Made by a program: the position numbers and the translations under genes. Shown in pieces: positions 3,154 to 19,851 of a DNA stretch of 32,000 nt. The first letter of the stretch is position 1. Each line of letters begins with the position of its first letter. This stretch comes from Melioribacteraceae bacterium (GTDB taxonomy: Bacteria; Bacteroidota; Ignavibacteria; Ignavibacteriales; Melioribacteraceae): assembly GCA_963667875.2 (NCBI GenBank), contig CAXXGC010000008.1, positions 188,191 to 220,190 of the forward strand, read 5' to 3'. The notes below the pieces were generated by a model. The model was not told where the DNA came from, did no database searches, and saw nothing but the letters and a program-made list of their open reading frames with translations.

Positions 3154-3417
3154 ATGAATGAAGTACTAAAAACAGTTGATGTTAAGCCTAAATTTGATAA
3201 TAAATTCAAATTTAAGTTATTTGTGTTAGAACCAATTATCGCATCAATTATAGGTTTTTTATTATTTGTAACTGTTATTTTTCTGGTAAAACTTTTAAGT
3301 TATGGTTTGGGGTTTCAAAGCACCATTTATTTTGATAATTACGATTTATGTCTTTCCAGTCTGGGATTAGTTTTAGCTTTTTTTATTCGTTTGATTGATA
3401 ATTTTAAAAAAGTTTAA
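3154..3417 (+). CDS. Hypothetical small membrane protein
   Basis: 87-aa ORF with two hydrophobic helices and a GGGGAG motif a few nt upstream of the ATG. No recognisable family. Its 3' end overlaps the prfA 3' end by 4 nt. Confidence 0.3.
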   Translation: MNEVLKTVDVKPKFDNKFKFKLFVLEPIIASIIGFLLFVTVIFLVKLLSYGLGFQSTIYFDNYDLCLSSLGLVLAFFIRLIDNFKKV

Positions 3418-4502: not shown

Positions 4503-4975
4503 TAACCGTTTCCGCTATTTTTTTAATGTGCAAATATACGGAATTTTTATATTTTTTGTAATACTAAAATATGGCGCAACAAATCGGCTTCTGTTTTATC
4601 TGCCGCAAAACAATTTTATGTATGTATACCGGATTAATTTATTTAACAAAACTGTCACAAATTTTTTATTTAATACACCCCGTTTAAATATAATCTTTGT
4701 TATTTATTAAAATTACTTTATTTTAAAATGGGGTTAAACTTATAATTTAGTTTTGCCTTTATTGTACTTTAAATATTTTGGGAATCTATTTAATAGTATT
4801 GAGGATATATGTGTGTTGCGGCAAGGCGGGAGAATAAAAAAAATTTTAACTATTTTAACCTTACACAATTTGTTTGGCAAAATCCAAACATCTATTTACT
4901 TTATATTTTTGCCTTTTCGCCTTTTTTTACAACCCTGACCTTTTATAAAAAACCAATTAATAATGGAGTTTTTTA

Positions 4976-5395
4976 ATGCCCTACGATATATTTATTAGTT
5001 ATGCGCGTGCAGATAATAAGAACGGCAGAGTTACCGAATTAAAAGAACAAATTGAAGCCGAATACCAAGCTTTGACCGGTGAAAAGTTAAATTGTTTTTT
5101 TGATACCGAAGATATAAAGGGTATGGATTATTGGGAACATAATATATTAAAAGCTCTTAAAGATTCTCATTTATTTTTGGTATTACTTACACCAAATTAT
5201 TTTAAAAGCGATTATTGTAATTTGGAGATAAACGATTATTTACGCCATGAATACTCTAAGGGTGTTTTGGGTGATGGCATAACACCGATATGTTTTGTTG
5301 AAATACCTGATTTAGACAAACCTGATTTTTTAGAAAACAACCCCAATTGGTTAAAAAAAATTAATAAACGCCAAAGGTTTGATTTGTCACTTTGG
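4976..5395 (+). other. TIR domain of paralog 1 (putative catalytic Glu84 at 5225-5227)
   Basis: The DIFISYARAD beta-A motif and the SDYCNLE motif, with the Glu in the position of the NADase catalytic glutamate of characterised TIR enzymes. Domain boundaries are approximate. Confidence 0.75.
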
Positions 5396-7885
5396 TTTAA
5401 AGATGGTGTTAGTTCTTTACAGGATAATAACATTAAAACAAGTTTAAATGAATTAGTTAAATCTATTTTTTTACGAATTACCCGAATGAAAAACACTAAA
5501 ATTACCGATGGTAATTTACGTCCGCCTACTGCAAATTTTGTAGGCCGTAATGACGAACTGCATAATATACATAATTCAATAGACGCCGGTAAATTTGGGA
5601 TTATTACGGCAGTGCATGGTGTTGGCGGGTTAGGTAAAACTGAAACAGCCATTAAATACGCTTATGCTTATGCCGATTATTTTAGCGGCGGCAGATGGCA
5701 GATAAACTGTACCAACGAAACAGATATAAACACAGCATTAAAAAAGCTTGAATTGGACCTTAAGTTATCTTTTACCGAAGAAGAAAAAAAGGATGAACTG
5801 CAAGGAGCTAAAAGGATATTAAACGGATTAGAGGAACGGGCAAATAAAGGTATAAATAATAATAACGGGAAAAAACCGGCTGCCCTTTTAATACTTGATG
5901 ACGTTAATTTTCCGGAACTAATACAGTCGCCCGGAATAGAATTATTTACAGGTAAAGAATGGTTAAAGGTTTTAGCCACAACCCGCAAAGGTGAAAAAGA
6001 ATTTGGATTACCTGAACATAAACATAATTTTATACCAATTGATATTTTACCTGATGATGATGCCCTTGAGTTAATAGAAAGTTATTTGCCAACTAAAAAA
6101 TTTAGAAACAAAGAAGAAAAAGAAACCGCTAAAAAAATTGTAAAAGCATTGGCTGGTTTTACACTTGCCGTTGAAATTGCGGCTGTTTTTTTAGGTGAAA
6201 ACTACAGATTAAATTCTTTTAATGAATTTTATGATAAGTTAATACAAAACGGGACTGCAATTGGTATTGACCTTGCGGGAGAACAGACAACTACCACAAC
6301 AAACCATATTAAACGTGTTTCCGCCACTTTAGCTTTAACTTTGGATACACTTACAAAAGAGGAAATATTAATACTTAATTATGCTTCATTGCTTCCGTAT
6401 AATTTAATACCTGTCCCGTGGTTAAAAGAACTTGTAACAAAAAAATACCCCGAATTAAAAAACCAAACAAAAACCGAGTTTTTAGATCCTTGGCTAATAA
6501 AAATTAACCGGTTAATAAGTTTACGTTTATTGCAAGTGGTTGAATTAGAGGACGATACCCCGCGTATTGTACGTATGCACCAGTTAATACAGGGAGTGAT
6601 ACAAAACCGATGTAATAATACAGAAGATTTATTAAACGATTTATTTAATCATGGCCTTGTTCGTTCCGAATACCTTGAAACCAATTGGTACAAAAAAAGC
6701 GAACAATGGGAGATAAACCCGCTTGTAAATTTTACGGAATTGCTTTTGGATAAATCGTATATAGATGCACCCCAATTAGTACTTTCTTATGGTCCATGGT
6801 TGGATAATATTTATTCAAATTATGCATATAAAACAATTCTTTTAAAAGCAATTAAACTATTACAAAATAAAGATAGTTATAAACAAACCGACCTTGCAAC
6901 TTTATTCTCCAACCTTGCAATAATCGAAAGCTATTTGGGGAATCTTAAAGAAGCTAAAGAGTATTTGCTTAAAGCTGTTAAAATAAAAGAACAGAATTAT
7001 GAGCCTAACCATCATTCATTTGCAATAAGTTATTCCAACCTTGCAATAATCGAAAGATATTTGGGGAATCTTAAAGAAGCTAAAGAGTATTTGCTTAAAG
7101 CTATTAAAATTGATGAATCTAATTTTGAGCCTAACCATCCAAATCTGGCTATTCTTTATTCCAACTTTGCTACTGTTGAATGGGCTTTGGGGCATTTAAT
7201 TGGTGCTAAAGAGTATTTGCTTAAAGCTATTAAAATATATAAATCAAATTATGATCCTAACCATCCACAATTGGCTGTTCTTTATTCCAACATTGCAATG
7301 GTTGAAATGGATTTAGGGAACTTAAAAGATGCTAAAAATTATTTGTTTAAAGCTGTTAAAATTGATGAACTTAATTTTGAGCCTAACCATCCAAAGCTGG
7401 CATGTGATTATTCCAACCTGGCACTTGTTGAACGGGCTTTGTGGAATTTAACCGATGCAAAAAATTATTTACTTAACGCTGTTAAAATAGATGAACTTAA
7501 TTTTGAACCTAACCATCCAAATCTGGCAAGTGATTATTCCAACCTGGCACTTGTTGAACAGAATTTGGGGAATTTAATAGATGCTAAAAATTATTTGCTT
7601 AAAGCTGTTAAAATAGATGAACTTAATTTTGAACCTAACCATCCTAATTTGGCTACTCTGTATTCCAACCTTGCACTTGTTGAAAAGGATTTAGGGAATA
7701 TAAAAGAGGCCGAAAAATTATTCCGAGAAGCACTAAAGATAAGAGAAATATCACTCCCCAAGGGGCATCCAGAAACCAAATACAGTTACTTGTTTCTTAT
7801 ATATTTATTAAACCAAACAGGTAGGGAAAAAGAAGCAGACGAATTACGGTTAAAAGCGAAAGAACATGGATTTGACAATTTATAA
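4976..7885 (+). CDS. TIR domain / NB-ARC-type STAND NTPase / TPR-repeat protein (Avs- or TIR-NLR-like), paralog 1
   Basis: 969-aa ORF with GGAG 8 nt upstream of the ATG. The N-terminus MPYDIFISYARADN...SDYCNLE is a bacterial TIR signature. The NB-ARC motif set is present: FVGR, P-loop GVGGLGKT, Walker B LLILDDV, KVLATTR, GFTLAVEIAA (the GLPLA position) and RMHQL (the MHD position). The C-terminus carries 7-8 tandem 42-aa TPR units. Confidence 0.9.
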   Translation: MPYDIFISYARADNKNGRVTELKEQIEAEYQALTGEKLNCFFDTEDIKGMDYWEHNILKALKDSHLFLVLLTPNYFKSDYCNLEINDYLRHEYSKGVLGDGITPICFVEIPDLDKPDFLENNPNWLKKINKRQRFDLSLWFKDGVSSLQDNNIKTSLNELVKSIFLRITRMKNTKITDGNLRPPTANFVGRNDELHNIHNSIDAGKFGIITAVHGVGGLGKTETAIKYAYAYADYFSGGRWQINCTNETDINTALKKLELDLKLSFTEEEKKDELQGAKRILNGLEERANKGINNNNGKKPAALLILDDVNFPELIQSPGIELFTGKEWLKVLATTRKGEKEFGLPEHKHNFIPIDILPDDDALELIESYLPTKKFRNKEEKETAKKIVKALAGFTLAVEIAAVFLGENYRLNSFNEFYDKLIQNGTAIGIDLAGEQTTTTTNHIKRVSATLALTLDTLTKEEILILNYASLLPYNLIPVPWLKELVTKKYPELKNQTKTEFLDPWLIKINRLISLRLLQVVELEDDTPRIVRMHQLIQGVIQNRCNNTEDLLNDLFNHGLVRSEYLETNWYKKSEQWEINPLVNFTELLLDKSYIDAPQLVLSYGPWLDNIYSNYAYKTILLKAIKLLQNKDSYKQTDLATLFSNLAIIESYLGNLKEAKEYLLKAVKIKEQNYEPNHHSFAISYSNLAIIERYLGNLKEAKEYLLKAIKIDESNFEPNHPNLAILYSNFATVEWALGHLIGAKEYLLKAIKIYKSNYDPNHPQLAVLYSNIAMVEMDLGNLKDAKNYLFKAVKIDELNFEPNHPKLACDYSNLALVERALWNLTDAKNYLLNAVKIDELNFEPNHPNLASDYSNLALVEQNLGNLIDAKNYLLKAVKIDELNFEPNHPNLATLYSNLALVEKDLGNIKEAEKLFREALKIREISLPKGHPETKYSYLFLIYLLNQTGREKEADELRLKAKEHGFDNL
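5537..6600 (+). other. NB-ARC-like STAND NTPase module of paralog 1
   Basis: Walker A GVGGLGKT at 5618-5641, Walker B Asp-Asp at 5897-5902, a TTR motif, GFTLAV, and MHQ at 6575-6583. Boundaries are approximate. Confidence 0.75.
6881..7762 (+). repeat. Coding tandem array, 7 full units of 126 bp (42-aa TPR units), then a degenerate eighth unit
   Basis: The consensus unit is NHPxLAxxYSNLAxVExxLGNLxxAKxYLLKAxKIDExNFEP. Units 1 and 2 share 75 of 77 nt (6908-6984 versus 7034-7110). Confidence 0.9.
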
Positions 7886-7923
7886 ATTTGTTTTAGAAAC
7901 AAAAGAATATTAAAGGGAAATTT

Positions 7924-8343
7924 ATGCCATACGATATATTTATAAGTTATGCACGTGCAGACAATGCCGATGGTAGAGTTACCGAACTAAAAAAACAAAT
8001 TGAAACCGATTATTTTGCTTTTGCAAAAGAAGAGTTAAAATGTTTTTTTGATACTAAAGATATAAAATGCATGGATGATTGGGAACATAATATATTAAAA
8101 GCTCTTAAACAATCTCATTTGTTATTGGTTATTCTTTCACCCGGTTATTTAAAAAGTGAATATTGCAATTGGGAAATAACTGAATACTTAAAATATGAAT
8201 ATTCCCGTGCCGTACAAGGTGATGGTGTTGCCCAAATATATTTTGTTGAAATACCGGACTTAGATAAACCCGGATTTTTTGAAAAAAAAGTTGAATGGAT
8301 TAATAAAGTAAAATTCCGCCAAAGGATTGATTTAAGACCATGG
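7924..8343 (+). other. TIR domain of paralog 2 (putative catalytic Glu84 at 8173-8175)
   Basis: DIFISYARAD and SEYCNWE motifs. By eye, well over half of the residues are identical to the paralog 1 TIR. Boundaries are approximate. Confidence 0.75.
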
Positions 8344-11235
8344 TATGATGATGGAATAAATTCTCTTAAACAACATGATGTAAAAAAACGTTTGGACGAA
8401 TTAAAAGAAGCACTTCACAAAAGAATAAAAAGAATGAGGCGGATAAACGATGCGCCCGGTAATTTACCCGCACCAAACGCCCGTTTTGTAGGCCGTGAAA
8501 ACGAAATACAAAAACTTCACTCATCTGTTGGTTTGTGTAAGTTTGGTATAATAACCGCAGTACATGGTTTGGGCGGAATGGGTAAAACCGCTTTAGCTTT
8601 TCAGTATGCTTATGCTTATGCCGATTTTTACCCCGGCGGAAGGTGGTATATAAACTGCACTAACGAAACCGGTTTAGCTGCCGCATTAAAAAAACTGGAT
8701 TTAGATCTTAATATAGAATTTACGGAAGATGAAAAAAAAGACGATATCAGGGGTGCAAAACGTATATTAGACAAGCTGGGAAAACTTGCAACTGAAGGTT
8801 CAAAAAAACGTGAAGGAGAAAAAGACCCGCCCCAATCCGCAGCACTTATATTGCTTGACAATGTAGACAATCCCGAAATTATTAAACCCGAAGAAACAAA
8901 TATCATTTCAGGAAAAGACTGGTTAAAAGTTTTAATTACCACCAGAAAAGGAATCGAAGATTTTGGTTCGGATGAAACAAAACAATCTTTTATTCCGGTT
9001 GACAAACTCCCTTTTGATGATGCACTTAGTTTAATAAAAAGTTACCAGCCTTATGGAATATTTAAAGATAAAAACGAAATAGAAAGTGCCGGTAAAATTG
9101 TAATTTTGCTTGACGGTTTTACATTAGCCGTTGAAATAGCTGCTGTATATTTACACGATCAAAATGGCTATATTTCTTGTGCCGATTATCTTAATATGCT
9201 TCAAAGAGATGGTTTAGTTGCAAGTGTTGAATATGCAGGCGATAAATCCAAAACCGCAATAAACCATACAAAACTTATTACGGCAACATTAAAACCAACT
9301 TTAGAACTTCTTTCAAACGAAGAAAAATTAATATTAAATTATGCATCCTTATTACCTCCCGAATCTATTCCAGTTGTATGGTTAAAAGCTCTGGTTACCG
9401 CACAATATCCTGAACTTGGAGAAGATGTTTTACCCGGAATTATTGACCCTTGGTTAATAAAAATAAACCACCTTTTTAGTTTACGTTTATTGCAGATAGT
9501 TGACTTAGGCACTGATGGACTTACTCCGCAAATAGTGCGTATTCATCGTCTTGTTCAGGAGGTTATTTTAGTAGATTTGGAGGGGAAAGACACTTTTACT
9601 GCTAACTTATTTGAACATTGTTTAAGTCGTTCCGCATATCTTGAAACCAACTGGTATAATAAAAGCGACCAATGGGAAATAAACCCGCTTGTAAATTTTA
9701 CGGAACTACTTTTGGATAAATCGAATGTCGATGCACCCCAATTAGTTATTTATCTTGGGCAATGTTTGCATGGACTTCATTTTAATAATAGGCACAAAAA
9801 AATTCTTTTACATGCTGTAAAACTATTACAAAACAAAGATAATTATAAACAAACCGACCTTGCAGTTTTATATTCTAATCTTGCGGCTGTCGAAAAGGCT
9901 TTGGGGAACTTTAAAAACGCTAAAGATTATTTGCTTAAAGCTGTTAATATTGATGAGCTTAATTTTGCGCCTGACCATCCCGCGCTGGCTACTTTATATT
10001 CCAACCTTGCAATGATTGAAAAGGATTTGGGGAATCTAAAAGATGCTAAAGATTATTTACTAAAGGCTATTAATATTGCTGAGCTTAATTTTGCGCCTAA
10101 CCATCCCACGCTGGCTACTTTATATTCCAACCTTGCACTTGTTGAAAGGCCTTTGGGGAATCTAAAAGATGCCAAAGATTATTTGCTAAAAGCAATAAAA
10201 ATCGGTGATGTAAGTTATGAGCCTAACCATCCTACTCTATCAACTTATTATTCCAACCTTGCAATGGTTGAAAGGGATTTGGGGAATTTGATAGATACTA
10301 AGGAGTATTCCCTTAAAGCAATAAAAATCGGGGAAGTAAATTATGAGCCTAACCATCCTCAATTGGCTATTTATAATTCCAACCTTGCATTAGTTGAACA
10401 GGATTTAGGGAATCTAAAAGAAGCTAAAGATTTTTTGCTTAAAGCAGTTACAATTGATGAACTTAATTATGAACCTAACCATCCAAATCTGGCAAGAGAT
10501 TATTCCAACCTTGCTACTGTTGAACAGGCTTTGGGGAACTTAAAAGATGCTAAAGACTATTTGCTTAAATCAATAAAAATCGGCGAGGTAAGTTATGAAC
10601 CCAACCATCCTCAATTGGCTATTTATTATTCCAACCTAGCAATGGTTGAACAGGATTTGGGGAATTTGATAGATGCTAAAGATTATTTGTTTAAAGCTGT
10701 TAAAATTGATGAACTAAATTTTGAGCTTAACCATCCTAATCTGGCCATAGATTATTCCAACCTTGCAACTGTTGAACAGGAGCTAGGGAACTTAACTTGT
10801 GCTAAAGATTATTTGCTTAAAGCGGTTAAAATTGATGAACTTAATTTTGCGCCTAACCATCCCACGCTGGCTTCTTTATATTCCAACCTAGCAATGGTTG
10901 AACAGGATTTGGGGAACTTAATGGAGGCACTGGTATTAATAAAAAATGCTGTTAGAATTGATGAATTTAATTTTGGAGAAAACCATATTAATTTAACCAC
11001 ATCACTTAATAACCTTGCAATGTTGCTGCAAAATAATAATCAATTAGATGAAGCTGAAAAAATAAGCCAAAAAGTGGTAAATATTTTTCTTAATTATGCA
11101 CGTACTACCGGACAAATACACCCACATTTAAAACGGGCAACAAATAATTATGTAATTTTGCTGCAAAAAATGGGCTGGAGTGAAGAGCAAATAATGGCAC
11201 AATTACATAAAATAGCACCGGAATTGTTTAAATAA
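7924..11235 (+). CDS. TIR domain / NB-ARC-type STAND NTPase / TPR-repeat protein, paralog 2
   Basis: 1103-aa ORF that starts 38 nt after paralog 1, with AGGGA upstream of the ATG. It has the same N-terminus (MPYDIFISYARADN...SEYCNWE), P-loop GLGGMGKT, Walker B LILLDNV, VLITTR, GFTLAVEIAA and RIHRL. About 10 tandem 42-aa TPR units follow, then a divergent C-terminal TPR-like cap. Confidence 0.9.
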   Translation: MPYDIFISYARADNADGRVTELKKQIETDYFAFAKEELKCFFDTKDIKCMDDWEHNILKALKQSHLLLVILSPGYLKSEYCNWEITEYLKYEYSRAVQGDGVAQIYFVEIPDLDKPGFFEKKVEWINKVKFRQRIDLRPWYDDGINSLKQHDVKKRLDELKEALHKRIKRMRRINDAPGNLPAPNARFVGRENEIQKLHSSVGLCKFGIITAVHGLGGMGKTALAFQYAYAYADFYPGGRWYINCTNETGLAAALKKLDLDLNIEFTEDEKKDDIRGAKRILDKLGKLATEGSKKREGEKDPPQSAALILLDNVDNPEIIKPEETNIISGKDWLKVLITTRKGIEDFGSDETKQSFIPVDKLPFDDALSLIKSYQPYGIFKDKNEIESAGKIVILLDGFTLAVEIAAVYLHDQNGYISCADYLNMLQRDGLVASVEYAGDKSKTAINHTKLITATLKPTLELLSNEEKLILNYASLLPPESIPVVWLKALVTAQYPELGEDVLPGIIDPWLIKINHLFSLRLLQIVDLGTDGLTPQIVRIHRLVQEVILVDLEGKDTFTANLFEHCLSRSAYLETNWYNKSDQWEINPLVNFTELLLDKSNVDAPQLVIYLGQCLHGLHFNNRHKKILLHAVKLLQNKDNYKQTDLAVLYSNLAAVEKALGNFKNAKDYLLKAVNIDELNFAPDHPALATLYSNLAMIEKDLGNLKDAKDYLLKAINIAELNFAPNHPTLATLYSNLALVERPLGNLKDAKDYLLKAIKIGDVSYEPNHPTLSTYYSNLAMVERDLGNLIDTKEYSLKAIKIGEVNYEPNHPQLAIYNSNLALVEQDLGNLKEAKDFLLKAVTIDELNYEPNHPNLARDYSNLATVEQALGNLKDAKDYLLKSIKIGEVSYEPNHPQLAIYYSNLAMVEQDLGNLIDAKDYLFKAVKIDELNFELNHPNLAIDYSNLATVEQELGNLTCAKDYLLKAVKIDELNFAPNHPTLASLYSNLAMVEQDLGNLMEALVLIKNAVRIDEFNFGENHINLTTSLNNLAMLLQNNNQLDEAEKISQKVVNIFLNYARTTGQIHPHLKRATNNYVILLQKMGWSEEQIMAQLHKIAPELFK
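8485..9565 (+). other. NB-ARC-like STAND NTPase module of paralog 2
   Basis: Walker A GLGGMGKT at 8566-8589, Walker B Asp at 8857-8859, TTR, GFTLAV, and an IHR (MHD-like) motif with its His at 9544-9546. Boundaries are approximate. Confidence 0.75.
9847..11106 (+). repeat. Coding tandem array, about 10 units of 126 bp (42-aa TPR units)
   Basis: The units follow the same consensus as paralog 1 (NHPxLAxxYSNLAxVExxLGNLxDAKDYLLKAxKIxExN[FY]xP). The last unit is degenerate. Confidence 0.9.
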
Positions 11236-11294
11236 CTTTACAATAAATACATTATTTTATAAAGGTTAATAAATGGATTTTTTTTGGAGAAAAG

Positions 11295-12200
11295 ATGAAA
11301 ACAATTTTAGTTACAGGGGATTTTATAATTTGCCATAACATTAAAAAAACCAAATCATTAAATTGGTCAGGTAATAACAGGGCGGACACCGTTATAAACA
11401 CACAACCCGGCGGAGGCTGGTTTATTAAAGAACTGTTAAACCTTATGTATAAAAAAGAGAATATTAATATTATAACTCCCCAATATACCGATTCTGCTGA
11501 TAAAGGTTATCAAATTTGGTCCAAGTTTAATAACATATGGCGGATTGAAGGTTTTTTAGGTAATGAACTAAATGAAAACAACGAACAAATTTATTCTGGT
11601 TTTTACCCTGAGCTGACAAAAAACGAATATCCCGATACGATATTTATAGACGACTTAGGCCTAAATTTTGCCGAAAACGAAAAGATTATTGTTTCCTTAT
11701 TAGATTACCTAAATAGCTGTACAGATATTATATTAAAAACAAAAACCCACAAATATAATTCCAGGTTATGGAACACTTTAAAACAGTATAATTTATTGGA
11801 TAAAACTACTGTGGTTACAACTTCCGATTCGTTAAGAAAAGGCGGGGCTAATATTTCGCGTAGTTTATCGTGGGATAAAACCATAGAGGATACAGCCGAA
11901 GAATTAAAAAACGGATATTTTAATGACGTTTTTAAAAATTGCAAAAGGATTATTATATTATACGATAAATTTGGTATAGGTTGTTTTACAACAAAATCGC
12001 AGACTAATAGATTTTCAGGAACGGATATTCACGAAGGCAAATTATCGTTTGAAAAATTTGTATATGACACAAAAAATTATGAGGGAGCTTGGGAAAATAA
12101 AAACGAGGGATTTTTATGCGGTTCGCTTTCATTGTTGGCTACAGCTTCAACATTAATTAACAACCAACAAAAACTTTCAATAAGTTATATTTTTAAAATG
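11295..12200 (+). other. Ribokinase (PfkB)-like domain, probably catalytically degenerate
   Basis: By-eye alignment of the GD..h..(gap)..PGG(G/A) N-terminal motifs, the TIFIDDLG and TTVVTTSDSLRKGG strands, and KRIIILYDKFGIGCF, to the PfkB fold. This is a remote call and needs HHpred or structure prediction. Confidence 0.4.
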
Positions 12201-13919
12201 GTATTAAGTTCAATACATAAATATCACGAGTATGGCGGCGGAACCGGTTTACAAATAGATTTTTCAGAAAGCAAAAAATTTATAAAAGAGCTGTTTAATT
12301 TTCATCAATTATCACCCGTAGAAGCTGAACTTAATAACAAGGAGATATTAAAAAATTTGAAACAGTTTTATTCCGCATACCCAAAATATTATAAACTTGC
12401 CGAATACGGGTTAAAGGAAATCCGTTCACGTTTTCAATCAAATATTTTAGTCGATTATTGCGGAAAAGGCGAGGAATTTTTATATGCAAAAGCTTTCGAA
12501 ATTATAATAACAGGTCATAAAAACGCGCTAAAACCGGTACCAATGGCAAGTTACGGTAAATATTTTACATTTGACCGCGATGAAATTGAAAGAATAAATT
12601 TTATACAAAACCTGATAAACACATATCAAGTTAATTTAACGGATAAACGCCCTTTATCTTTTGCGGTTTTTGGCGCGCCCGGTTCAGGTAAATCGTTTGC
12701 AATTAAAGAACTATTAAATACTATTTTTAGAACTGCAAAAGATCTGCTTGTTTTTAATCTTACTCAAATTCATGATATAAACGATTTATATCAAGCTTTT
12801 AATCTTGTACAAAACAGTGCGGTCAAAGGGGTTTTACCTTTGGTTTTTTGGGATGAGTTTGATAATATGGACAATATGTGGTTAAAAGACTTTTTAGCAC
12901 CAATGCAGGACGGAGAATATAATAATAACGGTATAAACCATACAATTGGAAGAGCAATATTTGTTTTTGCCGGCGGAACGTGTAATTCGTTTGAGGAATA
13001 CGAAAGTAAAGTGCATAAGACAGAAGGAATAAAAGGCCCCGATTTTATCAGCCGCTTGCGTGGTTATGTTAATATTAAAGGGCCAAACCCGGAAATACAG
13101 CCAAACAATATCAAAAGTTCCGACTATGCTTATTTAATCAGGCGGGCATTGTTAATTCGTTTTCATCTTGAAACACACCATCGGGGTATTTTTGACGCTG
13201 ATTTTATTCCGTCTATTAACCCCGGTGTAATTAACGCACTTCTTAAAACCAAAGAATATAAACATGGTTCCCGATCGGTTGAGTCGATAATCAGTTCAAG
13301 TTACACGGAAAGTAATAACCATTTTGGTTTTTCATCACTTCCTTCACCACAGTTATTAAATATTCACGCAGATGGCGATTTTATGACTTTAATTGACGAA
13401 GGAGAATTGGAGAACGATTTTATTGAATTAATTGCTGCATCCGCACATCAATATTGGATGGAGGAAAAGAAAAACCAAGGGTATAAATTCGGCCCCACAA
13501 GAAATGATAAAGGAGAAAATAAAACTCATCCCCAATTAATTCCCTATAATAAGTTAGATGAGGAATGGAAAGAACGGAACAGAAAAACCGCCCGTTTAAC
13601 AAAAGCAAAATTTGCAAAAATAGGATATTCGTTAATTCCAAAATTTAAACAGGAAGCTAACGATTTGGATATAACCTCAATTATTGAAAAAAACAAAACA
13701 AATTTGTTAAATATAGAACACGAAATTTGGCTTCGCGGACAACTTATAGAAGGTTACGAGTACAACGAAATTACTAATGACGACCTTTTACTTCACAAAG
13801 ATATTACAACAACTGGTAAATTGTTAAATTCCGCGGAAATAAAACTTGATGAAGCAATAATAGAAGCTACCCAAAAAGCGTTGGTGGAATCGGGATATAA
13901 ATTGCGTTTAATTAAATAA
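11295..13919 (+). CDS. Multidomain protein: ribokinase/PfkB-like N-terminal domain (degenerate) + classical AAA+ ATPase + tandem RyR (ryanodine-receptor repeat) domains
   Basis: 874-aa ORF starting 59 nt after paralog 2, with GGAGA upstream of the ATG. The N-terminus ILVTGDFIICHNI...(about 25 aa)...QPGGGWFIKELLNL parallels the ILVVGDxMLDRY...PGGAANVA layout of PfkB/HldE-type kinases. The GAGD anion-hole motif is replaced (NEGFLCGSLSLLA). The AAA core has FAVFGAPGSGKSFAIKELL (Walker A), LVFWDEFD (Walker B), IFVFAGGT and GPDFISRLRG. The C-terminus AASAHQYWMEEKKNQGYKFGPTRNDKGENKTHPQLIPYNKLDEEWKERNRKTAR matches the RyR repeat (PF02026-type) pattern. Confidence 0.8.
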   Translation: MKTILVTGDFIICHNIKKTKSLNWSGNNRADTVINTQPGGGWFIKELLNLMYKKENINIITPQYTDSADKGYQIWSKFNNIWRIEGFLGNELNENNEQIYSGFYPELTKNEYPDTIFIDDLGLNFAENEKIIVSLLDYLNSCTDIILKTKTHKYNSRLWNTLKQYNLLDKTTVVTTSDSLRKGGANISRSLSWDKTIEDTAEELKNGYFNDVFKNCKRIIILYDKFGIGCFTTKSQTNRFSGTDIHEGKLSFEKFVYDTKNYEGAWENKNEGFLCGSLSLLATASTLINNQQKLSISYIFKMVLSSIHKYHEYGGGTGLQIDFSESKKFIKELFNFHQLSPVEAELNNKEILKNLKQFYSAYPKYYKLAEYGLKEIRSRFQSNILVDYCGKGEEFLYAKAFEIIITGHKNALKPVPMASYGKYFTFDRDEIERINFIQNLINTYQVNLTDKRPLSFAVFGAPGSGKSFAIKELLNTIFRTAKDLLVFNLTQIHDINDLYQAFNLVQNSAVKGVLPLVFWDEFDNMDNMWLKDFLAPMQDGEYNNNGINHTIGRAIFVFAGGTCNSFEEYESKVHKTEGIKGPDFISRLRGYVNIKGPNPEIQPNNIKSSDYAYLIRRALLIRFHLETHHRGIFDADFIPSINPGVINALLKTKEYKHGSRSVESIISSSYTESNNHFGFSSLPSPQLLNIHADGDFMTLIDEGELENDFIELIAASAHQYWMEEKKNQGYKFGPTRNDKGENKTHPQLIPYNKLDEEWKERNRKTARLTKAKFAKIGYSLIPKFKQEANDLDITSIIEKNKTNLLNIEHEIWLRGQLIEGYEYNEITNDDLLLHKDITTTGKLLNSAEIKLDEAIIEATQKALVESGYKLRLIK
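12627..13155 (+). other. AAA+ ATPase module
   Basis: Walker A GAPGSGKS at 12672-12695 and Walker B DE at 12852-12857. A sensor-1-like GGT and an Arg-rich ISRLRG segment lie downstream. Confidence 0.75.
13419..13916 (+). other. Two RyR-type repeats (first canonical at 13419-13640, second degenerate at 13701-13916)
   Basis: Repeat 1 is FIELIAASAHQYWMEEKKNQGYKFGPTRNDKGENKTHPQLIPYNKLDEEWKERNRKTARLTKAKFAKIGYSL. Repeat 2 is NIEHEIWLRGQLIEGYEYNE...LLLHKDITTTGKLLNSAEIKLDEAIIEATQKALVESGYKL. Both follow the pattern A..H..W......G[WY].[FY]G.......HP.L.P...L....K..[DN]R. Confidence 0.65.
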
Positions 13920-14068
13920 AATAAACGGTTGTTGCAAACTGCAAAAGGCTAATAAAATGTAACACTTTCAGCGTTATTACGCAATATATTGATTTTCGCT
14001 AAATAAATTTCAATTTGGATTAGTGAATTATATAAAAGAGGTTATCTTAAAAGTCTAAATGTAATACA

Positions 14069-14245
14069 GGGTACTCACCCGTCTCAAAATCAGCCGGGCG
14101 TGGCCCCTGACTCTCCCGCTGTGCGGGACAAGCTCTATTCTTAAAAATAGTGGGGTGACTGTAAAAGCATATAAAACAATGATTTGTAAGGATTTGTGTC
14201 TCCTCTCTTTTTAAGAGAGGAGATTAAGAGGTGAGTTCGTTTTTT
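14069..14245 (+). other. GC-rich, hairpin-dense non-coding element (candidate small RNA, REP-like element or insertion scar)
   Basis: It sits in a 378-nt convergent spacer. A GC-rich core (CACCCGTCTC..AGCCGGGCGTGGCCCCTGACTCTCCCGCTGTGCGGGACAAGCTC) stands out from the AT-rich background. Hairpins are CCCGC-TGT-GCGGG (14115-14127) and TCTCCTCTC-N7-GAGAGGAGA (14199-14223). A possible long-range helix pairs ACTCACC (14073-14079) with GGTGAGT (14230-14236), followed by a T6 run. Strand and function are unknown. Confidence 0.25.
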
Positions 14246-14297
14246 AATTTTTACACAGACTGTTAAGCCTGCTCTTTTTTTCTAAACACAAAACCAT

Positions 14298-15434
14298 TTA
14301 TTTCTTTTTAATAATTACTTTACCCATATTTGAAGTAAGTTCAACCCTGACGGAGCCATTGCCTATTACTGCGTCGGCGTTAATTTCTTCCCAATCATCA
14401 TTATCAATATTTAATTTAAAATCACTTTTTATATAATCGTCCATATCTTCCGAACCGTTTCCTTTAACTTGAACTTTTATTTTCATCCCTAAATTTTCCG
14501 GAACAGTTAAATAAATATTGCCTGCCATTGTTGAAATATTAATTTCACCGTTTTCAGGACAGCCATTTAAGTTAACCGTAATATTGCCGCCCATAGTTTT
14601 TGCTTCAATTTCGCCATCCATTTCATCAACTTTAATATCACCGCCCATAGTTGTAACTTTCAGATCATCTTTTGCCGAATTAATTTCAATATTGCCCCCC
14701 ATGGTTGTAATTATTGATTCGGTTAAAACTTTATCAACTTTAATATCACCGCCCATAGTTTTTATTGTAATTTCATCAAGGCTCGATTTATTTTCTTTAA
14801 GTGTAACATTTTTTTGATGTATTTCGCCACCCATAGTTTCAACACTTAAATTTCCGGTAACATCTTCCATTCTAATTTCACCGCCCATGGTTTTTACTTT
14901 TCCGTCAAGCGTACATTTATATAAAGTTATTTCACCACCCATGGTTTGGCAATTTGCACTACCATTTAAATCCGAAAAATTTAATTCGCCCCCCATAGTT
15001 TTGCCTCTTAAATCGCCGGTAATATTCTTTAAAGTAACATCACCCCCCATTGTTATATATTCAACACTGTATTTAACGGGTACTTTAACAAACACTTTTG
15101 CATCATATTTTGCGTTTTTATGTTTGTTTGTTAACTTAGCATTTATTTCAACACCTTCGGATGTTTCGTTAATATCATAAGTAACTCTGTCGGCATTTTT
15201 ACCGGTGGTTTGGCAAACAACATTAACTACTTCTTTATCCCAGCCTGTAACTTCAATTTCAGCACCAATTTCCAAATTAATATTAACTTTTAAACCCGAT
15301 TTTGTGTTAAAACTTTTATCAATTTTTTCAGGTGTAACATTGTTGTCTTTGTAAAAAACATTATTAATACCGCTTAATGGATAAGCACCCATAAACAGAA
15401 CCATAACAATTGCAATTTTAATATAATTTTTCAT
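14298..15434 (-). CDS. DUF4097-like secreted beta-helical repeat protein (TMGG[DE]I repeats)
   Basis: 378 aa with an N-terminal signal-like hydrophobic segment. About ten 18-aa repeats are each anchored by TMGG[DEN]I, as seen in DUF4097 / LiaF-C-terminal-type domains. It is the last gene of the ECF sigma operon. Confidence 0.7.
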   Translation of the reverse strand: MKNYIKIAIVMVLFMGAYPLSGINNVFYKDNNVTPEKIDKSFNTKSGLKVNINLEIGAEIEVTGWDKEVVNVVCQTTGKNADRVTYDINETSEGVEINAKLTNKHKNAKYDAKVFVKVPVKYSVEYITMGGDVTLKNITGDLRGKTMGGELNFSDLNGSANCQTMGGEITLYKCTLDGKVKTMGGEIRMEDVTGNLSVETMGGEIHQKNVTLKENKSSLDEITIKTMGGDIKVDKVLTESIITTMGGNIEINSAKDDLKVTTMGGDIKVDEMDGEIEAKTMGGNITVNLNGCPENGEINISTMAGNIYLTVPENLGMKIKVQVKGNGSEDMDDYIKSDFKLNIDNDDWEEINADAVIGNGSVRVELTSNMGKVIIKKK

Positions 15435-15449
15435 TTTATCCCCGTTAGT

Positions 15450-16589
15450 TTATTTTTTATTCTTTTTTACTGATATTTTTGAATTTGTTGTTTCCAAATA
15501 TATTTTATCGCCGCCGCCGTTAATGGAATAACTTGCGGTTATGTTGCCGCTTTTATTGCTTTTTTTCAAAGAAGTCGGTTCAAAATCCGAATCAATTTGC
15601 GGTTCATCCTCATCATACCAACCCCAATCTCTTATTTTTGCATCAACGTAAGCTTTTGCATTTGACGGCAGATATAAATTAATATCACCCGAACTCGATT
15701 TTATTACCGAATTCCAGCCGCCGGTAGGGGTTAGTTCAACATTAACTTCACCGGCCATTGTATTTGCGTCTATACTTCCAACAATACCATACAGTTTAAG
15801 ATCACCGGCACCGCTTTCAACAGTTATTTTGCCTTTTGCGCCATTTAAAGTAATATCACCGCCCATAGTTTTTAACTTGCCGTTTCCGTTCATAAAACCT
15901 GTATTAATATCACCGCCATTTGTTGTCAACTCGGAATCATCTCCAATGTCACCAACTTTAATATCACCGCCATAAGTATGAAGATTAAGGCCTTTAATCG
16001 ATTTTTTTATTCTGATATCGCCGCCCATGGTTTCAATTCTAACAATTTCACCGGAAAGTGTGCCCAAATATATTTCGCCGCCCATGGTTTTAAGGTCAAG
16101 TTTCCCTGTAACATCCATACCTCTAATATCACCGCCGGCCGAAAAAGCATTCAAATCGCCTTTAATGTTTGCAAAATGTACTTCGCCGCCTGATGTTTTT
16201 AGATAAACATTTCCGGTTATTTCATCTCTTAATTTAATATCACCAAAATTAGCTTTAATACTTAAATTTATTTGTTTTGGAACAGTTACACGCAAATCAT
16301 AAGAGGCCCAGCCATCTTCATAATTAGGTGTTACGTACAACCAACTTCCGCTTTGTTTATATTTTAAAGGATTCCCATATTCTTCATCTTCACTTTCAAT
16401 TCTTATTAATACTTCGTCTTTATTCCAAGTATCAACCGTAATATTCCCCTGTATTAAATCAAATTCTACTTTTCCCCCTTTTTGCATTTGAAAAGACTTT
16501 GTAGATCCGTTATTTGTTATATTTTCTGCTTTAGCAGTATTTATAATTAACAGCAATAAAAGTAAATTTATATATTTAAAGTATCTCAT
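15450..16589 (-). CDS. DUF4097-like secreted beta-helical repeat protein, paralog
   Basis: 379 aa with a signal-like N-terminus (MRYFKYINLLLLLLIINTAKA) and repeated [ST]xGG[DE]I units (TSGGEV, SAGGDI, TMGGEI, TMGGDI, TYGGDI, TNGGDI ...). There is a 15-nt gap to the downstream paralog. Confidence 0.7.
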   Translation of the reverse strand: MRYFKYINLLLLLLIINTAKAENITNNGSTKSFQMQKGGKVEFDLIQGNITVDTWNKDEVLIRIESEDEEYGNPLKYKQSGSWLYVTPNYEDGWASYDLRVTVPKQINLSIKANFGDIKLRDEITGNVYLKTSGGEVHFANIKGDLNAFSAGGDIRGMDVTGKLDLKTMGGEIYLGTLSGEIVRIETMGGDIRIKKSIKGLNLHTYGGDIKVGDIGDDSELTTNGGDINTGFMNGNGKLKTMGGDITLNGAKGKITVESGAGDLKLYGIVGSIDANTMAGEVNVELTPTGGWNSVIKSSSGDINLYLPSNAKAYVDAKIRDWGWYDEDEPQIDSDFEPTSLKKSNKSGNITASYSINGGGDKIYLETTNSKISVKKNKK

Positions 16590-16590
16590 A

Positions 16591-17553
16591 TTATATAGCC
16601 TCCTTCAGCATTGAAGCGGCACGAACACGGATTAATTTATTTTCGTCATTTGCAGCTTGCTCGCTTAATACCGATTTTGTTTTTTCATCAATTTTATATC
16701 CTTCCGTATGAAGCTGATTTATTGCATTAATTGCTTCAATTCGTAATCCCGAATTTGTATCATTTGTAAGCACAAACAAAAATGCATCGCGTATTTTATC
16801 ATCAGCCGGAAATTTTGTTAAAGTTAATAATGCTTCTCTTCTAACACCCGGATTTTTATCCAATTTAATTGTATTAATTAATGCGTCTTTAATTTTATAA
16901 TCATTTACAAATTTACCGTTCTCCTGCGAGGAAATGGTGTTTATACTTTTCATTTTTACGCCGTCATTATTAGAATTGGTTAATGCCATAGCTAATAATT
17001 TTTTAGTTCTTTCATCGTTAAAATTACCTTTATAATAAACTTTTTTTACTGCTTCAAACCCAAGTTCTATTTCACCTGTCTGCGCATTGGTGGTAATAAA
17101 ACTTACATTTGTAATAGCAAAATCATCACTAATCGACTTATTGCTTATATCCACAATTTCAGTTGATGAATTGTTTATTTTCGAAACTCCCATATATAAA
17201 GCGGAATATCCTATTAATAAGCCAACTAATAACGACCCAAATGATCCAAATGCTAATTTATGCTCATAAATAAATGAATCTTCAAAATATTCTTTAATTT
17301 TTTGCCAAATTGTTTTTTTATTATTTAGTTCCTGCAAATGTTTTAATAATTCAACACGTGCCATTACAAGTTGTCTTTCGTTTATTTTAGGTTTATTGGC
17401 CGAATACAATTCAAACATTTTTTTCTGCTCTTCATATTCCTGTCTGCATTCATCACATTCAAAAAGATGATTTTCGACAATTTGTTTTTCCTCATTTCCC
17501 AACTCTTCCAATAACGATAAAGCGATTAATTCTTTTATATTTTCGTGTGTCAT
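16591..17553 (-). CDS. Anti-sigma factor (zf-HC2 N-terminus, one TM helix, C-terminal HEAT-like repeats)
   Basis: The H-x3-C-x2-C motif (HLFECDEC) is near the N-terminus. A single hydrophobic helix follows (FGSFGSLLVGLLIGYSALYMG). The C-terminus has repeated D.N.GVRREAL / DTNSGLRIEAI / DENKLIRVRAA HEAT-type motifs. It lies immediately downstream (12 nt) of the ECF sigma gene. Confidence 0.7.
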   Translation of the reverse strand: MTHENIKELIALSLLEELGNEEKQIVENHLFECDECRQEYEEQKKMFELYSANKPKINERQLVMARVELLKHLQELNNKKTIWQKIKEYFEDSFIYEHKLAFGSFGSLLVGLLIGYSALYMGVSKINNSSTEIVDISNKSISDDFAITNVSFITTNAQTGEIELGFEAVKKVYYKGNFNDERTKKLLAMALTNSNNDGVKMKSINTISSQENGKFVNDYKIKDALINTIKLDKNPGVRREALLTLTKFPADDKIRDAFLFVLTNDTNSGLRIEAINAINQLHTEGYKIDEKTKSVLSEQAANDENKLIRVRAASMLKEAI

Positions 17554-17565
17554 TTTTGTTAAATC

Positions 17566-18138
17566 CTAATTTTGTAAAACAGGTTGTAAAATAGATCTTA
17601 AACGGTGTGTTGCGTTAAATAAGTACCTTTTTACCGTACCTTCATTACAGTTCATTATTTTTGCTATCTCTTTTATTTTATATTCATTATAATGCTTTAG
17701 TGTAAAAGCCAACTTTTGCTGAACGGGCAAAGTTTCCAAAGCATCATTAATTAGTTTGTTAGTTTCATTGTTAAGCAGATTTTCATCTGTTTTCTCCAAA
17801 GAAGGGATTGAGTCCGAAAATTTTTCATCGCTGTCTTCAAATTCCACATCAAGCGAATCGTGAACATGTCTCTTTTTTTGTGTGTTCAGCGTAATGCAAA
17901 CATTTGTTGCAATTCTAAACAGCCAAGTCGAAAATTCACTTTTGAATTGAAAGCTTTTTAACCCCTTATATACTCTGATAAACACTTCCTGGTATATATC
18001 TTTTGCTTCATCTTCATCATTCTTAAAAGAATACGCAATGTTTAATACCTGCCTATCATACTTATAAATAAGTTGTTCAAAGGCTTTCATATCACCTTCT
18101 TGGGCTTTTTTAATTAATTTAATTTCATTTTCAGTCAT
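17566..18138 (-). CDS. ECF-type RNA polymerase sigma-70 family factor
   Basis: 190 aa. Region 2 is DIYQEVFIRVYKGLKSF...FSTWLFRIATNVCI. The region 4 helix-turn-helix is YKIKEIAKIMNCNEGTVKRYLFNATHRLR. Confidence 0.9.
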   Translation of the reverse strand: MTENEIKLIKKAQEGDMKAFEQLIYKYDRQVLNIAYSFKNDEDEAKDIYQEVFIRVYKGLKSFQFKSEFSTWLFRIATNVCITLNTQKKRHVHDSLDVEFEDSDEKFSDSIPSLEKTDENLLNNETNKLINDALETLPVQQKLAFTLKHYNEYKIKEIAKIMNCNEGTVKRYLFNATHRLRSILQPVLQN

Positions 18139-18163
18139 ATGTCATCAAAATGTTTCTATTAAT

Positions 18164-18189
18164 TTAGACTAATTATTTTGATTAAGGTT
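18164..18189 (-). promoter_or_regulatory. Candidate ECF (sigma-E-like) autoregulated promoter
   Basis: The minus strand reads AACCTT-N14-GTCTAA. The 18-nt AAC-to-TCTAA spacing equals that of the GGAACTT-N16-TCNAA type consensus. The -10-like element lies about 26 nt upstream of the sigma factor start codon. This is a motif match only. Confidence 0.3.
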
Positions 18190-18379
18190 GTAATTTTCTT
18201 AAAAAATTTTATTTTTTTCATTTTGTTTATCCGTTTTGTATAAATATCAGCTTCATTATTGCTATTTTTGTATAATGGAAAATTAGATTTAAATAAAATT
18301 AAAATTAACATTTTTTTATTGCGGAAAATATTAAAAAAAATAAAAATTTTAACTCTATAATTATTCTTGCAGAGGCATT

Positions 18380-19849
18380 ATGAAAATTGCTTACATATCC
18401 GGTGAGGTTGTCCCTTTTGCAAAAACAGGGGGATTGGCTGATGTAGCCGGTGCTTTGCCAATAGCATTACAAAATTTGGGCTGTGAAGTTAAAGTATTTA
18501 TGCCTAAATATTATTCTATTGAAGAAAAACGATTTAATTTAGAGTATTTAACTAATATTGGCGAAATTAAAATACGTGCCGGAGGTTTTTCTCATCCGGT
18601 TCATTTTTATAAAGGATTATTGCCTAATTCGGCAGTAGAAATTTATTTTATCGATTATCCTAATTTTTTTCATCGTCACAAATTATATACTAACGATTAC
18701 GATGAGGATTTACGTTTTATTCTGTTTTCAAAAGCAGTTATTGAATTAACCCAACATTTGAAGTGGGTACCCGATGTTTTCCACTGTAATGACTGGCAGA
18801 CCGCTTTAATTCCTTTACTTGTTAAAGATAATTACAGCTGGGATAGATTATTTGATAATTCCGCATTCCTTTTTACAATTCATAATATCGGTTATCAAGG
18901 CCGATTTTCGCATGGTGCATTGTTAAATGCCGAAATAAACGGCAAATACTATTACCCGGGCGGTCCTGTTGAGTTTGAAAACGGCGTAAATTTTATGAAA
19001 GCCGGTATTCATTTTAGTGATATTATAAATACTGTAAGTGAAACTTATGCCCGTGAATTGTTAACCGTTGAATATGGGCATGGTTTAAATAACGTGCTTT
19101 GGCAAAAAAAAGAAGATTTGTACGGTATTGTTAACGGTGTTGATTATTCCGTGTGGAATCCCGAAACTGATAAATTTATACCGGCAAACTATTCCAGTAT
19201 TGATTTCAGCGGGAAATATAGAGATAAAGAAGCTTTATTAAAGTATTTTAATTTGCCGTATAATCCCGATATACCTGTAATTGGAATAATTTCCCGCCTT
19301 GCTGTTCAAAAAGGATTTGATATTTTATCGGACGCAATGGGCGAACTTATAAAATTAAACGCTCAATGGATAATTTTGGGAAGCGGAGAATATAAATATG
19401 AAGACATGTTCCGCAGTTTGGCTTATTACCATCCGCATAAAGTTGGTGTTTATTTTGGTTATAATAACGAACTATCGCATTTGATTGAAGCAGGTTCCGA
19501 TATATTTTTAATGCCGTCTCATTACGAACCTTGCGGACTAAATCAAATTTATTCGTTAAAATATGGAACGGTTCCCGTGGTTAGAAAAACCGGAGGGTTA
19601 GCTGATACCGTACACGATTGGCATGAATACAGTTTTTACGGAATGGATAATGGAAATGGTTTTTCATTTAACGATTACACGGGTTATGCGTTATTAACTT
19701 CGGTAGAACGTGCGTTAAAGTTGTTTTATGATAAATCAACCTGGCGAAAAATTCAATCCAATGGTATGAATGAAGAATACAGCTGGGATCATGCCGCAAA
19801 ACAATATATAATTTTGTACGAAAAAGCATTAAAAAAACGACTCGGATAA
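18380..19849 (+). CDS. glgA: Glycogen (starch) synthase
   Basis: 489 aa. The N-terminal MKIAYISGEVVPFAKTGGLADVAGALP (KTGGL motif) and the C-terminal EPCGLNQIYSLKYGTVPVVRKTGGLADTV are hallmarks of GT5 GlgA. Confidence 0.9.
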   Translation: MKIAYISGEVVPFAKTGGLADVAGALPIALQNLGCEVKVFMPKYYSIEEKRFNLEYLTNIGEIKIRAGGFSHPVHFYKGLLPNSAVEIYFIDYPNFFHRHKLYTNDYDEDLRFILFSKAVIELTQHLKWVPDVFHCNDWQTALIPLLVKDNYSWDRLFDNSAFLFTIHNIGYQGRFSHGALLNAEINGKYYYPGGPVEFENGVNFMKAGIHFSDIINTVSETYARELLTVEYGHGLNNVLWQKKEDLYGIVNGVDYSVWNPETDKFIPANYSSIDFSGKYRDKEALLKYFNLPYNPDIPVIGIISRLAVQKGFDILSDAMGELIKLNAQWIILGSGEYKYEDMFRSLAYYHPHKVGVYFGYNNELSHLIEAGSDIFLMPSHYEPCGLNQIYSLKYGTVPVVRKTGGLADTVHDWHEYSFYGMDNGNGFSFNDYTGYALLTSVERALKLFYDKSTWRKIQSNGMNEEYSWDHAAKQYIILYEKALKKRLG

Positions 19850-19851
19850 AT

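Follow-up and report, generated by a model that had tools for sequence, protein, structure and literature searches.

Ryanodine receptor (RyR) Repeat12 domains, such as that of human RyR3, bind the adenine nucleotides ATP and ADP. Two preprints from 2026 have added phage proteins of the same fold that act on cyclic ADP-ribose (cADPR) and its relatives. RyDEP of mycobacteriophage DyoEdafos is a RyR-fold glycosidase which opens 2'cADPR and 3'cADPR to ADP-ribose (ADPR), with H75 and D117 as catalytic residues and W78 and H100 holding the ligand; six of eight phage RyR homologues tested bound the signals, and none but RyDEP cleaved them (PMC13232231). RyR Tad (gp68 of Pectobacterium phage CB1) is a sponge that binds 3'cADPR, 2'cADPR and cADPR via H129/W132, K147/H154 and K170/D171, and keeps both the His and the Asp of the dyad (10.64898/2026.06.04.730250). 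Here, we describe a bacterial protein in which a tandem of RyR repeats is joined to two further domains. The protein, denoted X, has 874 residues and is encoded on the forward strand at positions 11295-13919 of a 32,000-nucleotide stretch of a Melioribacteraceae genome (contig CAXXGC010000008.1, the window in the following), directly behind two genes for TIR-NB-ARC-TPR proteins. We tentatively read X as a ligand-gated AAA+ receiver or effector for TIR-made ADPR signals, at a probability of roughly 40%. A preliminary description of this DNA had regarded the function of bacterial RyR-domain proteins as essentially unknown; given the binding and hydrolysis of 2'cADPR, 3'cADPR and cADPR by phage RyR proteins in the two preprints, that view is outdated.

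An AlphaFold2 model of full-length X, built on 62 homologues, reached a predicted local distance difference test score (pLDDT) of 91.9 and a predicted template modelling score (pTM) of 0.92. X is a tripartite protein, composed of a ribokinase/PfkB fold, an AAA+ ATPase and a tandem RyR module. This architecture had been proposed in the preliminary description, and all three domains are upheld by the model, Foldseek searches, profiles and conserved motifs; every motif quoted there is present in the open reading frame (ORF). The ORF starts with ATG, preceded by GGAG, and its coordinates agree exactly with those given earlier. Searches of X against PADLOC and NCBIfam profiles returned P-loop noise only, PADLOC holding no model for this family, and no nuclease, protease or membrane domain was found in X.

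The Pfam RyR profile (PF02026) matches X with E = 3e-16 and 59.9 bits, well over the gathering cut-off of 27.4 bits and in line with the earlier assignment of the C-terminus, the best stretch being residues 708-780; the profile also matches 51 of 54 family members. Repeat 1 comprises residues 705-782 (13407..13640, forward strand). Repeat 2, residues 798-872 (13686..13910, forward strand), is weakly detected by Pfam, and was assigned from a weak sequence match and superposition on the tandem RyR Repeat12 chimera 6uhi (179 columns, template modelling (TM) score 0.72). Searched alone, repeat 2 matches the Bacteroides (Bt)/human RyR chimera with E = 5.9e-4. The repeats share their secondary-structure pattern in the model, from which they are predicted to form one pseudo-symmetric module. 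The second repeat had been described as degenerate, which holds relative to the Pfam profile but not within the family, where it is better conserved than repeat 1 (E808 in 60, H809 in 61, W812 in 62, G820 in 60 and D852 in 53 of 62 homologues).

For direct alignment, gp68 served as the RyR reference in place of the RyDEP sequence. Repeat 1 is 33% identical to the C-terminal domain of gp68 (MAFFT), and the ligand residues of the sponge find counterparts in X: H718 corresponds to H129, W721 to W132, R736 to K147, H745 to H154, R761 to K170 and N762 to D171. Position 762 is Asn in 55 of 62 members. Because Asn stands where RyDEP has its catalytic acid, the alignment argues for binding or sensing over hydrolysis at repeat 1. 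MAFFT mis-gapped repeat 2 against gp68, and secondary-structure equivalence from the model was used instead. H834 (His in 43 and Asn in 17 of 62 homologues) closes the second short strand in repeat 2 as H745 does in repeat 1, and the register of D852 relative to the ligand or catalytic Asp is uncertain by one residue. A weak match to RyDEP itself was found in the PDB (35tm_A; X 716-766 against chain residues 74-120). Having experimental precedent, which the PfkB-like domain lacks, the RyR module appears to be the best-supported sensor in X.

X is the third gene of a putative three-gene operon. The first, at 4976..7885 on the forward strand, encodes a TIR-NB-ARC-TPR protein of 969 residues (paralogue 1; Pfam TIR_2 at 5-136 with E = 6.8e-14, NB-ARC at 194-425 with E = 3.7e-12, and TPR_12), and the second, at 7924..11235 on the same strand, a paralogue of 1103 residues (paralogue 2; Pfam TIR_2, TIR, NB-ARC and TPR_12). 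The two lie in tandem (4976-11235), are 58% identical over 967 residues, and carry internally repetitive TPR arrays with 77-83% DNA self-similarity between repeat units (blastn). An S-x-Y-C-x-x-E motif with Glu84 is present in both, and in paralogue 2 this Glu ('YCNWEI') aligns with the catalytic Glu region 'WCLMEL' of the plant L6 TIR. All three genes share one strand, with intergenic gaps of 38 and 59 nucleotides, and X is very probably co-transcribed with the two sensors. A promoter and terminator scan of 4400-14400 was uninformative (fewer promoter-like sites than in shuffled sequence, terminator-like sites within ~1.5 standard deviations of the shuffles), an Rfam search of the island gave no match, and no small ORFs were found in the 379-nucleotide gap 3' of X. 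A second public assembly (locus L001, 1-19389, equal to window 1299-20683) is 99.9% identical with 13 indels, which break the TIR ORFs: in its gene calls the second TIR gene is split into pieces of 47, 82, 395 and 318 residues and the first is shortened to 901 residues. Both assemblies have X unbroken, and the indels probably stem from errors of long-read assembly rather than from pseudogenes.

To place this arrangement in context, ORFs were called in 79 loci with X homologues (handles L001 onwards), flanking proteins were clustered, and TIR ORFs were detected with a hidden Markov model iterated from the TIR domains of the window. A TIR ORF occurs at most three genes from X in 23 of the 79 loci, covering at least 10 phyla, and in 21 of the 68 loci with adequate flanks. 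This frequency of 29% appears to lie far above any plausible background, gauged from the ~8% of genomes reported to hold TIR signalling systems. TIR genes directly adjoin X in 18 loci (20 genes). Fourteen of these genes share the strand of X, at a distance of 11-138 nucleotides in 13 cases and of 325 nucleotides in one. Of the 84 proteins encoded right next to X on its strand, 13 match TIR_2, the most frequent Pfam family; next come RyR and TIR (7 each), DUF4062 (5), ThsB_TIR and RelA_SpoT (4 each), and NACHT and SLATT_1 (3 each), while PADLOC returned TIR models, PDC-S66 and PDC-S33 for the same-strand neighbours of X. DUF4062 is a TIR-like NADase (10.64898/2026.05.01.722283).

In the closest clade (47-54% identity to X), TIR or DUF4062-STAND genes are present in each of the eight loci whose context could be read. 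The orthologous pair is seen in L090, where a TIR-STAND-TPR orthologue of paralogue 2 (45% identity over 930 residues) lies directly upstream of the X orthologue (47%) on the same strand. In L089 (1-18772), X is part of an island with a DUF4062-STAND-TPR protein, four TIR proteins (among them a TIR protein of 524 residues, TIR-TPR and a TIR protein of 199 residues), a TIR-NB-ARC-WD40 protein, a RelA_SpoT-SLOG-RyR protein, a NUDIX protein and a RyR-only protein of 125 residues; a 92-residue HPr-like ORF and an AAA_14/DUF4143 protein are also found. The related loci group several TIR or DUF4062-STAND sensors with differing repeat domains around one X and other RyR or SLOG proteins, which suggests many sensors with shared receivers. 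The preliminary description had ventured that X may be a sugar-nucleotide-sensing ATPase placed after two TIR enzymes. This idea gains strength from the TIR neighbourhood, which is recurrent and often operonic; it is the RyR module rather than the PfkB-like domain that has precedent as a sensor, and the function is one we infer.

The AAA+ module in the centre of X spans residues ~431-690 (12585..13364, forward strand). Its Walker A (GAPGSGKS, residues 460-467, 12672..12695) and Walker B (VFWDEFD, residues 517-523, 12843..12863) motifs, both on the forward strand and both recognized in the preliminary description, are invariant or nearly so in the 62 homologues: G460, P462, G463, G465, K466 and S467 as well as D520, E521 and D523 are without exception, the family form of Walker A being GxPGSGKSF (460-468). 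K466, D520 and E521 are likewise invariant in a set of 75 sequences. PF00004 (AAA) matches 49 of 54 family members with a best E of 2.7e-8, whereas X itself scores 15.7 bits, under the cut-off of 21.2, and its central hits are sub-threshold P-loop/AAA matches. Further conserved positions (R616/R617, invariant; R587, in 61 of 62; T562; and the motif H657-G-A-R660-S) are candidate sensor-1 or arginine-finger residues. Structural matches of the module in PDB and viral fold searches are a mix of ClpC1/ClpB, FtsH, MoxR and RFC, i.e. generic, with long and poor superpositions. No YVG-type pore-loop motif was seen on reading the X family alignment.

The N-terminal domain (residues 1-340, 11295..12314, forward strand) is a ribokinase/PfkB fold with a β-lid and is predicted, from Foldseek and conservation, to be a non-kinase. 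When residues 1-350 were modelled alone (pLDDT 90.0, pTM 0.91), the best 50 Foldseek matches in the PDB were all PfkB-family kinases (E = 7.7e-9 to 6.9e-7, TM score 0.41-0.60, identity 8-13%), and the full-length model gave PfkB kinases as top matches as well (HldA, Pfk-2, pseudouridine kinase, ketohexokinase and ribokinase). The PfkB-like order noted earlier for the first ~300 residues is thereby borne out at the level of the fold; the top 50 matches give no sign of a fold unrelated to ribokinase. No Pfam, NCBIfam or PADLOC profile matches the region. X has no PfkB match at E ≤ 1, and PfkB is outside the 25 families most often matched by the 54 members (E ≤ 0.1). The PfkB landmarks are kept in their usual order, namely V-T-G-D(9)-x-x-x-D(13), G39-G40, a strand-G-x-x-G(227)-strand hairpin, and a glycine-rich turn (G272, G276) ahead of helix 277-287. 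Position 13, which on motif order we tentatively equate with D16 of ribokinase, is Asp in 55 of 62 members and Cys in X itself; of the GG dipeptide, G39 is found in 60 and G40 in 62 of 62 homologues.

Loss of the GAGD motif, remarked upon earlier for X, is family-wide: no conserved aspartate stands before helix 277-287 in the 62 homologues in either plausible register, position 273 being variable (S/R/T/K/G and others) and position 277 A/T/Y/S/G. The conserved N-x-x-E is absent as well between strand 171-176 and helix 193-206, where the consensus reads RLTVVxxAxxLRxRGAxISxGLSWDxTIED and L180, R181, S192 and W193 are invariant or nearly so. Six residues (D9, R83, R181, S192, W193 and E263) do not vary at all in a comparison of 75 sequences drawn from more than 10 phyla; G40, G89 and G272 are also invariant, while R181, W193, E203 and E263 are nearly so in the 62 homologues. 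Conservation of this degree suggests a functional site, for a ligand or for catalysis, with a changed chemistry, and speaks against a domain in decay. Ribokinase counterparts of the conserved residues can be proposed from motif order and secondary structure, and the pocket is a possible second ligand site.

The family is large. A word-indexed search gave 88 homologues, most covering at least 90% of X, and a scan with one genome per species at least 334 relatives of the same architecture, in Bacteroidota, Acidobacteriota, Planctomycetota, Chloroflexota, Bacillota, Actinomycetota, Pseudomonadota, Cloacimonadota, Gemmatimonadota, Chlorobiota and one euryarchaeote. With the N-terminal domain as query, 323 clusters at 50% identity were obtained, nearly all of proteins of 850-1000 residues with the match at the N-terminus; the domain is thus essentially confined to the X architecture, and the shorter hits may be fragments. 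An artefactual fusion of the ORF during assembly, a concern raised at the outset, is ruled out by the hundreds of full-length homologues together with the second assembly, in which X is intact. A phage search returned isolated RyR domains only. Three plasmid copies of X were found; of the two inspected, one shows no defence context and the other is next to a giant SIR2 protein. The latter (L088, 1-8419, Methylobacterium plasmid NZ_CP107533.1) is annotated 'RyR domain-containing protein' and adjoins transposase genes and a SIR2 family protein of more than 1400 residues, an NAD+-linked defence-type neighbour. No paper describing the X architecture was found in the accessible literature; the family is apparently undescribed, yet widespread.

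Other proteins recur beside X, i.e. a RelA_SpoT-SLOG-RyR protein of ~850 residues, a TrkA_N-RyR protein of ~600 residues, and a family of ~195 residues with SLOG-like motifs. The first (L003:10790-13339, L005:5405-7960, L008:5376-7934 and L089:1-1651) combines a RelA_SpoT nucleotide pyrophosphokinase domain with a SLOG domain of the prokaryotic LSDAT type and RyR at the C-terminus, and matches the PADLOC candidate PDC-S33. Its genes adjoin X and often also a small NUDIX gene (in L003 and L089), and it is plausible that they encode a second RyR-gated effector. The TrkA_N-RyR protein, an NAD-binding Rossmann domain with C-terminal RyR, is encoded one or two genes from X (L019:7672-9501, L066:12582-14336, L038:12867-14612). 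The gene for the ~195-residue protein immediately follows X in at least 10 loci (L019:7061-7648, L024:4670-5254, L027:5589-6146, L028:11222-11800, L029:12139-12690, L033:4561-5151, L035:12682-13194, L049:12066-12665, L059:12641-13264 and L065:1838-2419), and in four of these ten (L019, L028, L049 and L059) a TrkA_N-RyR gene comes next. Its motifs GVTGHR, SPLAEGADR and GGTGxIV look like those of a SLOG/LOG-type Rossmannoid; Pfam gave a single weak hit, to YpsA (E = 0.003), and a sequence search of the PDB gave none.

On these grounds, the following sequence of events can be proposed. Upon sensing of infection, the TIR-STAND proteins would oligomerise and convert NAD+ to an ADPR-derived molecule (2'cADPR, 3'cADPR, cADPR or a relative), which would be bound by the RyR tandem of X. 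The cleft of the pseudo-ribokinase domain would suit a ribose beside an ADP, and this ligand, or another of ADPR type, may be held there. Binding would then switch the assembly or the ATP turnover of the AAA+ module, and the latter would deliver the output. Because no YVG-type pore loop was seen and no nuclease, protease or membrane domain was found, the candidate outputs are an uncontrolled consumption of ATP, the remodelling of some target protein, or amplified TIR-STAND activity. A Bacillota subclade (L072-L083, L086) lacks TIR neighbours and carries D13N, E203Q, H834D and D852V/I/A together, with Lys at position 273. Being a correlation within a single lineage, this is weak evidence that the two pockets are coupled and vary jointly where X has no TIR neighbours.

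Several observations weigh against a role of X as TIR-signal receiver. In about 60% of the loci neither a TIR gene nor a second RyR gene is found close to X, and in cultured Clostridia X stands by itself amid housekeeping or signalling genes. TIR-STAND fusions are usually regarded as self-contained NAD+-depleting effectors and were excluded from the systematic Thoeris survey for that reason. X has no recognizable killing domain. RyR Repeat12 also binds ATP and ADP, so that the ligand need not be a TIR product, and the clustering could reflect co-location in defence islands rather than one pathway. Moreover, the function of X is read from sequence and structure models rather than from biochemistry.

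The explanation next in probability to the receiver role is in our view unlikely: X may be an autonomous AAA+ defence or stress protein that senses a nucleotide or metabolite (ATP/ADP, NAD+ or ADPR), its proximity to TIR genes being due to island clustering. The occurrence of X alone in many loci, the adenine nucleotide binding of human RyR3, a patchy phyletic spread as is typical of mobile defence genes, and the plasmid copy in L088 beside transposase genes and a giant SIR2 protein all agree with this explanation. It accounts poorly for 13 loci from many phyla in which TIR genes of differing architectures lie 11-138 nucleotides away on the same strand, and for an orthologous gene pair conserved at 45-47% protein identity. 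Furthermore, X is accompanied specifically by TIR, DUF4062, RyR and SLOG proteins rather than by an assortment of defence systems.

Rather less probable still is that X terminates or recycles the signal. As a RyDEP-like glycosidase it would open 2'cADPR or 3'cADPR to ADPR, limiting self-damage or resetting the TIR-STAND proteins, with ADPR held by the pseudo-ribokinase domain and its breakdown finished by a nearby NUDIX protein. RyDEP sets the precedent for a cADPR glycosidase with RyR fold and a His/Asp dyad; repeat 2 of X keeps H809 (61 of 62) and, nearby, D852 (53 of 62), and NUDIX genes accompany RelA_SpoT-SLOG-RyR genes in L003 and L089. However, the better-aligned repeat 1 has Asn at the acid position in 55 of 62 members, and the one-residue uncertainty in the register of D852 affects the dyad of repeat 2. 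The dyad is moreover no predictor of catalysis, because six of eight phage homologues bind and only RyDEP cleaves, while the non-cleaving RyR Tad keeps both His and Asp. A simple hydrolase would also not need 870 residues and a fully conserved AAA+ engine.

Little credence is given to X as an assembly factor or amplifier, i.e. an AAA+ protein gated by ADPR-type ligands which promotes or dissolves TIR-STAND oligomers as positive or negative feedback and is not itself the effector. AAA+ proteins often remodel oligomers, X is without a killing domain, and several TIR or DUF4062-STAND paralogues surround it in L089, L090 and the window. The lack of a YVG-type pore-loop motif in the alignment speaks against such a role, as does the occurrence of X with short TIR proteins in loci that lack a STAND partner, and a physical interaction of X with TIR-STAND proteins has no support. 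Finally, a kinase activity of the N-terminal domain through non-canonical catalytic residues, with a sugar, nucleoside or ADPR-type molecule phosphorylated as effector chemistry, is very improbable: its fold is that of PfkB kinases, and six residues conserved at 100% in 75 sequences from distant phyla would suit catalysis or binding, but the catalytic GAGD Asp and the Mg/phosphate NxxE are both absent family-wide, X gives no Pfam PfkB signal and PfkB is not among the top 25 families of the 54 members.

If X is a receiver, it need not be the only one. We entertain, as a possibility with lower odds than the receiver role of X, that TIR-STAND sensors signal via shared RyR receivers (X, RelA_SpoT-SLOG-RyR, TrkA_N-RyR and small RyR proteins) in a network akin to plant TNL and EDS1/helper signalling, and that the RyR Repeat12 pocket is an ancient receptor for TIR-made ADPR signals, inherited by animal ryanodine receptors.

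The surroundings of the three-gene block are of a different kind. It is flanked by a release-factor gene and a cluster of extracytoplasmic function (ECF) sigma factor, anti-sigma factor and DUF4097 genes, and the remaining window is housekeeping. A NUDIX hydrolase gene (window 291-749, 152 residues) lies 4.2 kb upstream of the island with three housekeeping genes between; it was rejected as part of the system, in view of these intervening genes and an identity of only 28% to the NUDIX proteins of related islands. On the reverse strand, window 14298-16589 encodes two adjacent paralogues of ~378 residues made of many 'TMGG(D/E)I' β-repeat units (DUF4097 type), downstream of an ECF sigma factor (17566-18138) and a zf-HC2 anti-sigma factor (16591-17553). 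Long forward-strand ORFs at 14518-14817 and 14887-15180 are shadows of these repeats.

Were the receiver role of X true, bacterial immunity would gain its first RyR-domain receiver of cellular (non-phage) origin, and TIR signalling its first class of effectors built as a ligand-gated AAA+/pseudo-kinase. It would imply that STAND/NLR-fused TIR proteins can generate signals and not only burn NAD+, which is the logic of plant TNL immunity, and it would suggest, in a testable way, where animal ryanodine receptors, for which the role of cADPR is an old question, acquired their nucleotide pocket. Mechanism aside, the family is widespread (at least 334 species-level relatives, more than 10 phyla), with a confident model and clear mutational targets.

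In summary, X can be compared with four described groups. With the phage proteins RyDEP and RyR Tad it has in common the RyR/Repeat12 fold (PF02026) and the ligand-contact pattern H-x-x-W ... H ... (K/R)(D/N); nanomolar binding or cleavage of 2'cADPR, 3'cADPR and cADPR is established for the phage proteins. The phage proteins are homodimers of ~140-180 residues directed against host immunity, whereas X is a cellular protein of 874 residues in which two fused repeats replace the homodimer, and which is joined to AAA+ and pseudo-kinase domains and encoded beside TIR genes rather than in a phage. With PfkB/ribokinase kinases, the N-terminal domain shares the α/β fold, the β-sheet lid, the N-terminal order of GD...D and GG motifs, the strand-G-x-x-G-strand hairpin and the G-rich turn before the C-terminal helix. 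It differs by its low identity (8-13%), the absence of a Pfam match, the replacement of the GAGD Asp and NxxE by D9, R83, R181, S192-W193 and E263, and the fusion to an AAA+ module. X represents an undescribed protein family, putatively of TIR-based signalling, and, despite the fold, is no PfkB kinase by sequence or catalytic motifs. The likeness to plant TNL and EDS1/helper signalling would be functional, and is unproven: in concept, TIR-NB-ARC-repeat sensors make NAD-derived molecules that are read by a separate receptor, and in both cases several sensors could share one receiver. X has no homology to EDS1 family proteins or helper NLRs.

The closest comparison is with Thoeris, in which a TIR protein (ThsB) is paired with an effector such as the SIR2-SLOG protein ThsA. 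In both cases a TIR gene adjoins a gene for a protein with a potential ADPR-derivative-binding domain, and neighbours of X match ThsB-type TIR models. Conversely, the TIR domains of the X locus are fused to NB-ARC/TPR STAND modules, a class deliberately set aside by the systematic Thoeris survey; the sensor domain of X is RyR, not SLOG, Macro or others, and X is without a known toxic domain. The main text of the survey, which covers 29 effector types, does not mention RyR, AAA or PfkB, nor do its supplements, as far as accessible, mention RyR or PfkB, and no precedent for AAA+ or a pseudo-kinase as the effector domain of a TIR signal was found in the literature searched. Placed outside the described Thoeris types because its RyR sensor fold has so far been described only in phage counter-defence, its TIR partners are STAND-fused and its other two domains have no precedent, X still appears most like a Thoeris effector, with a ligand-sensing and an output domain encoded beside a TIR gene.

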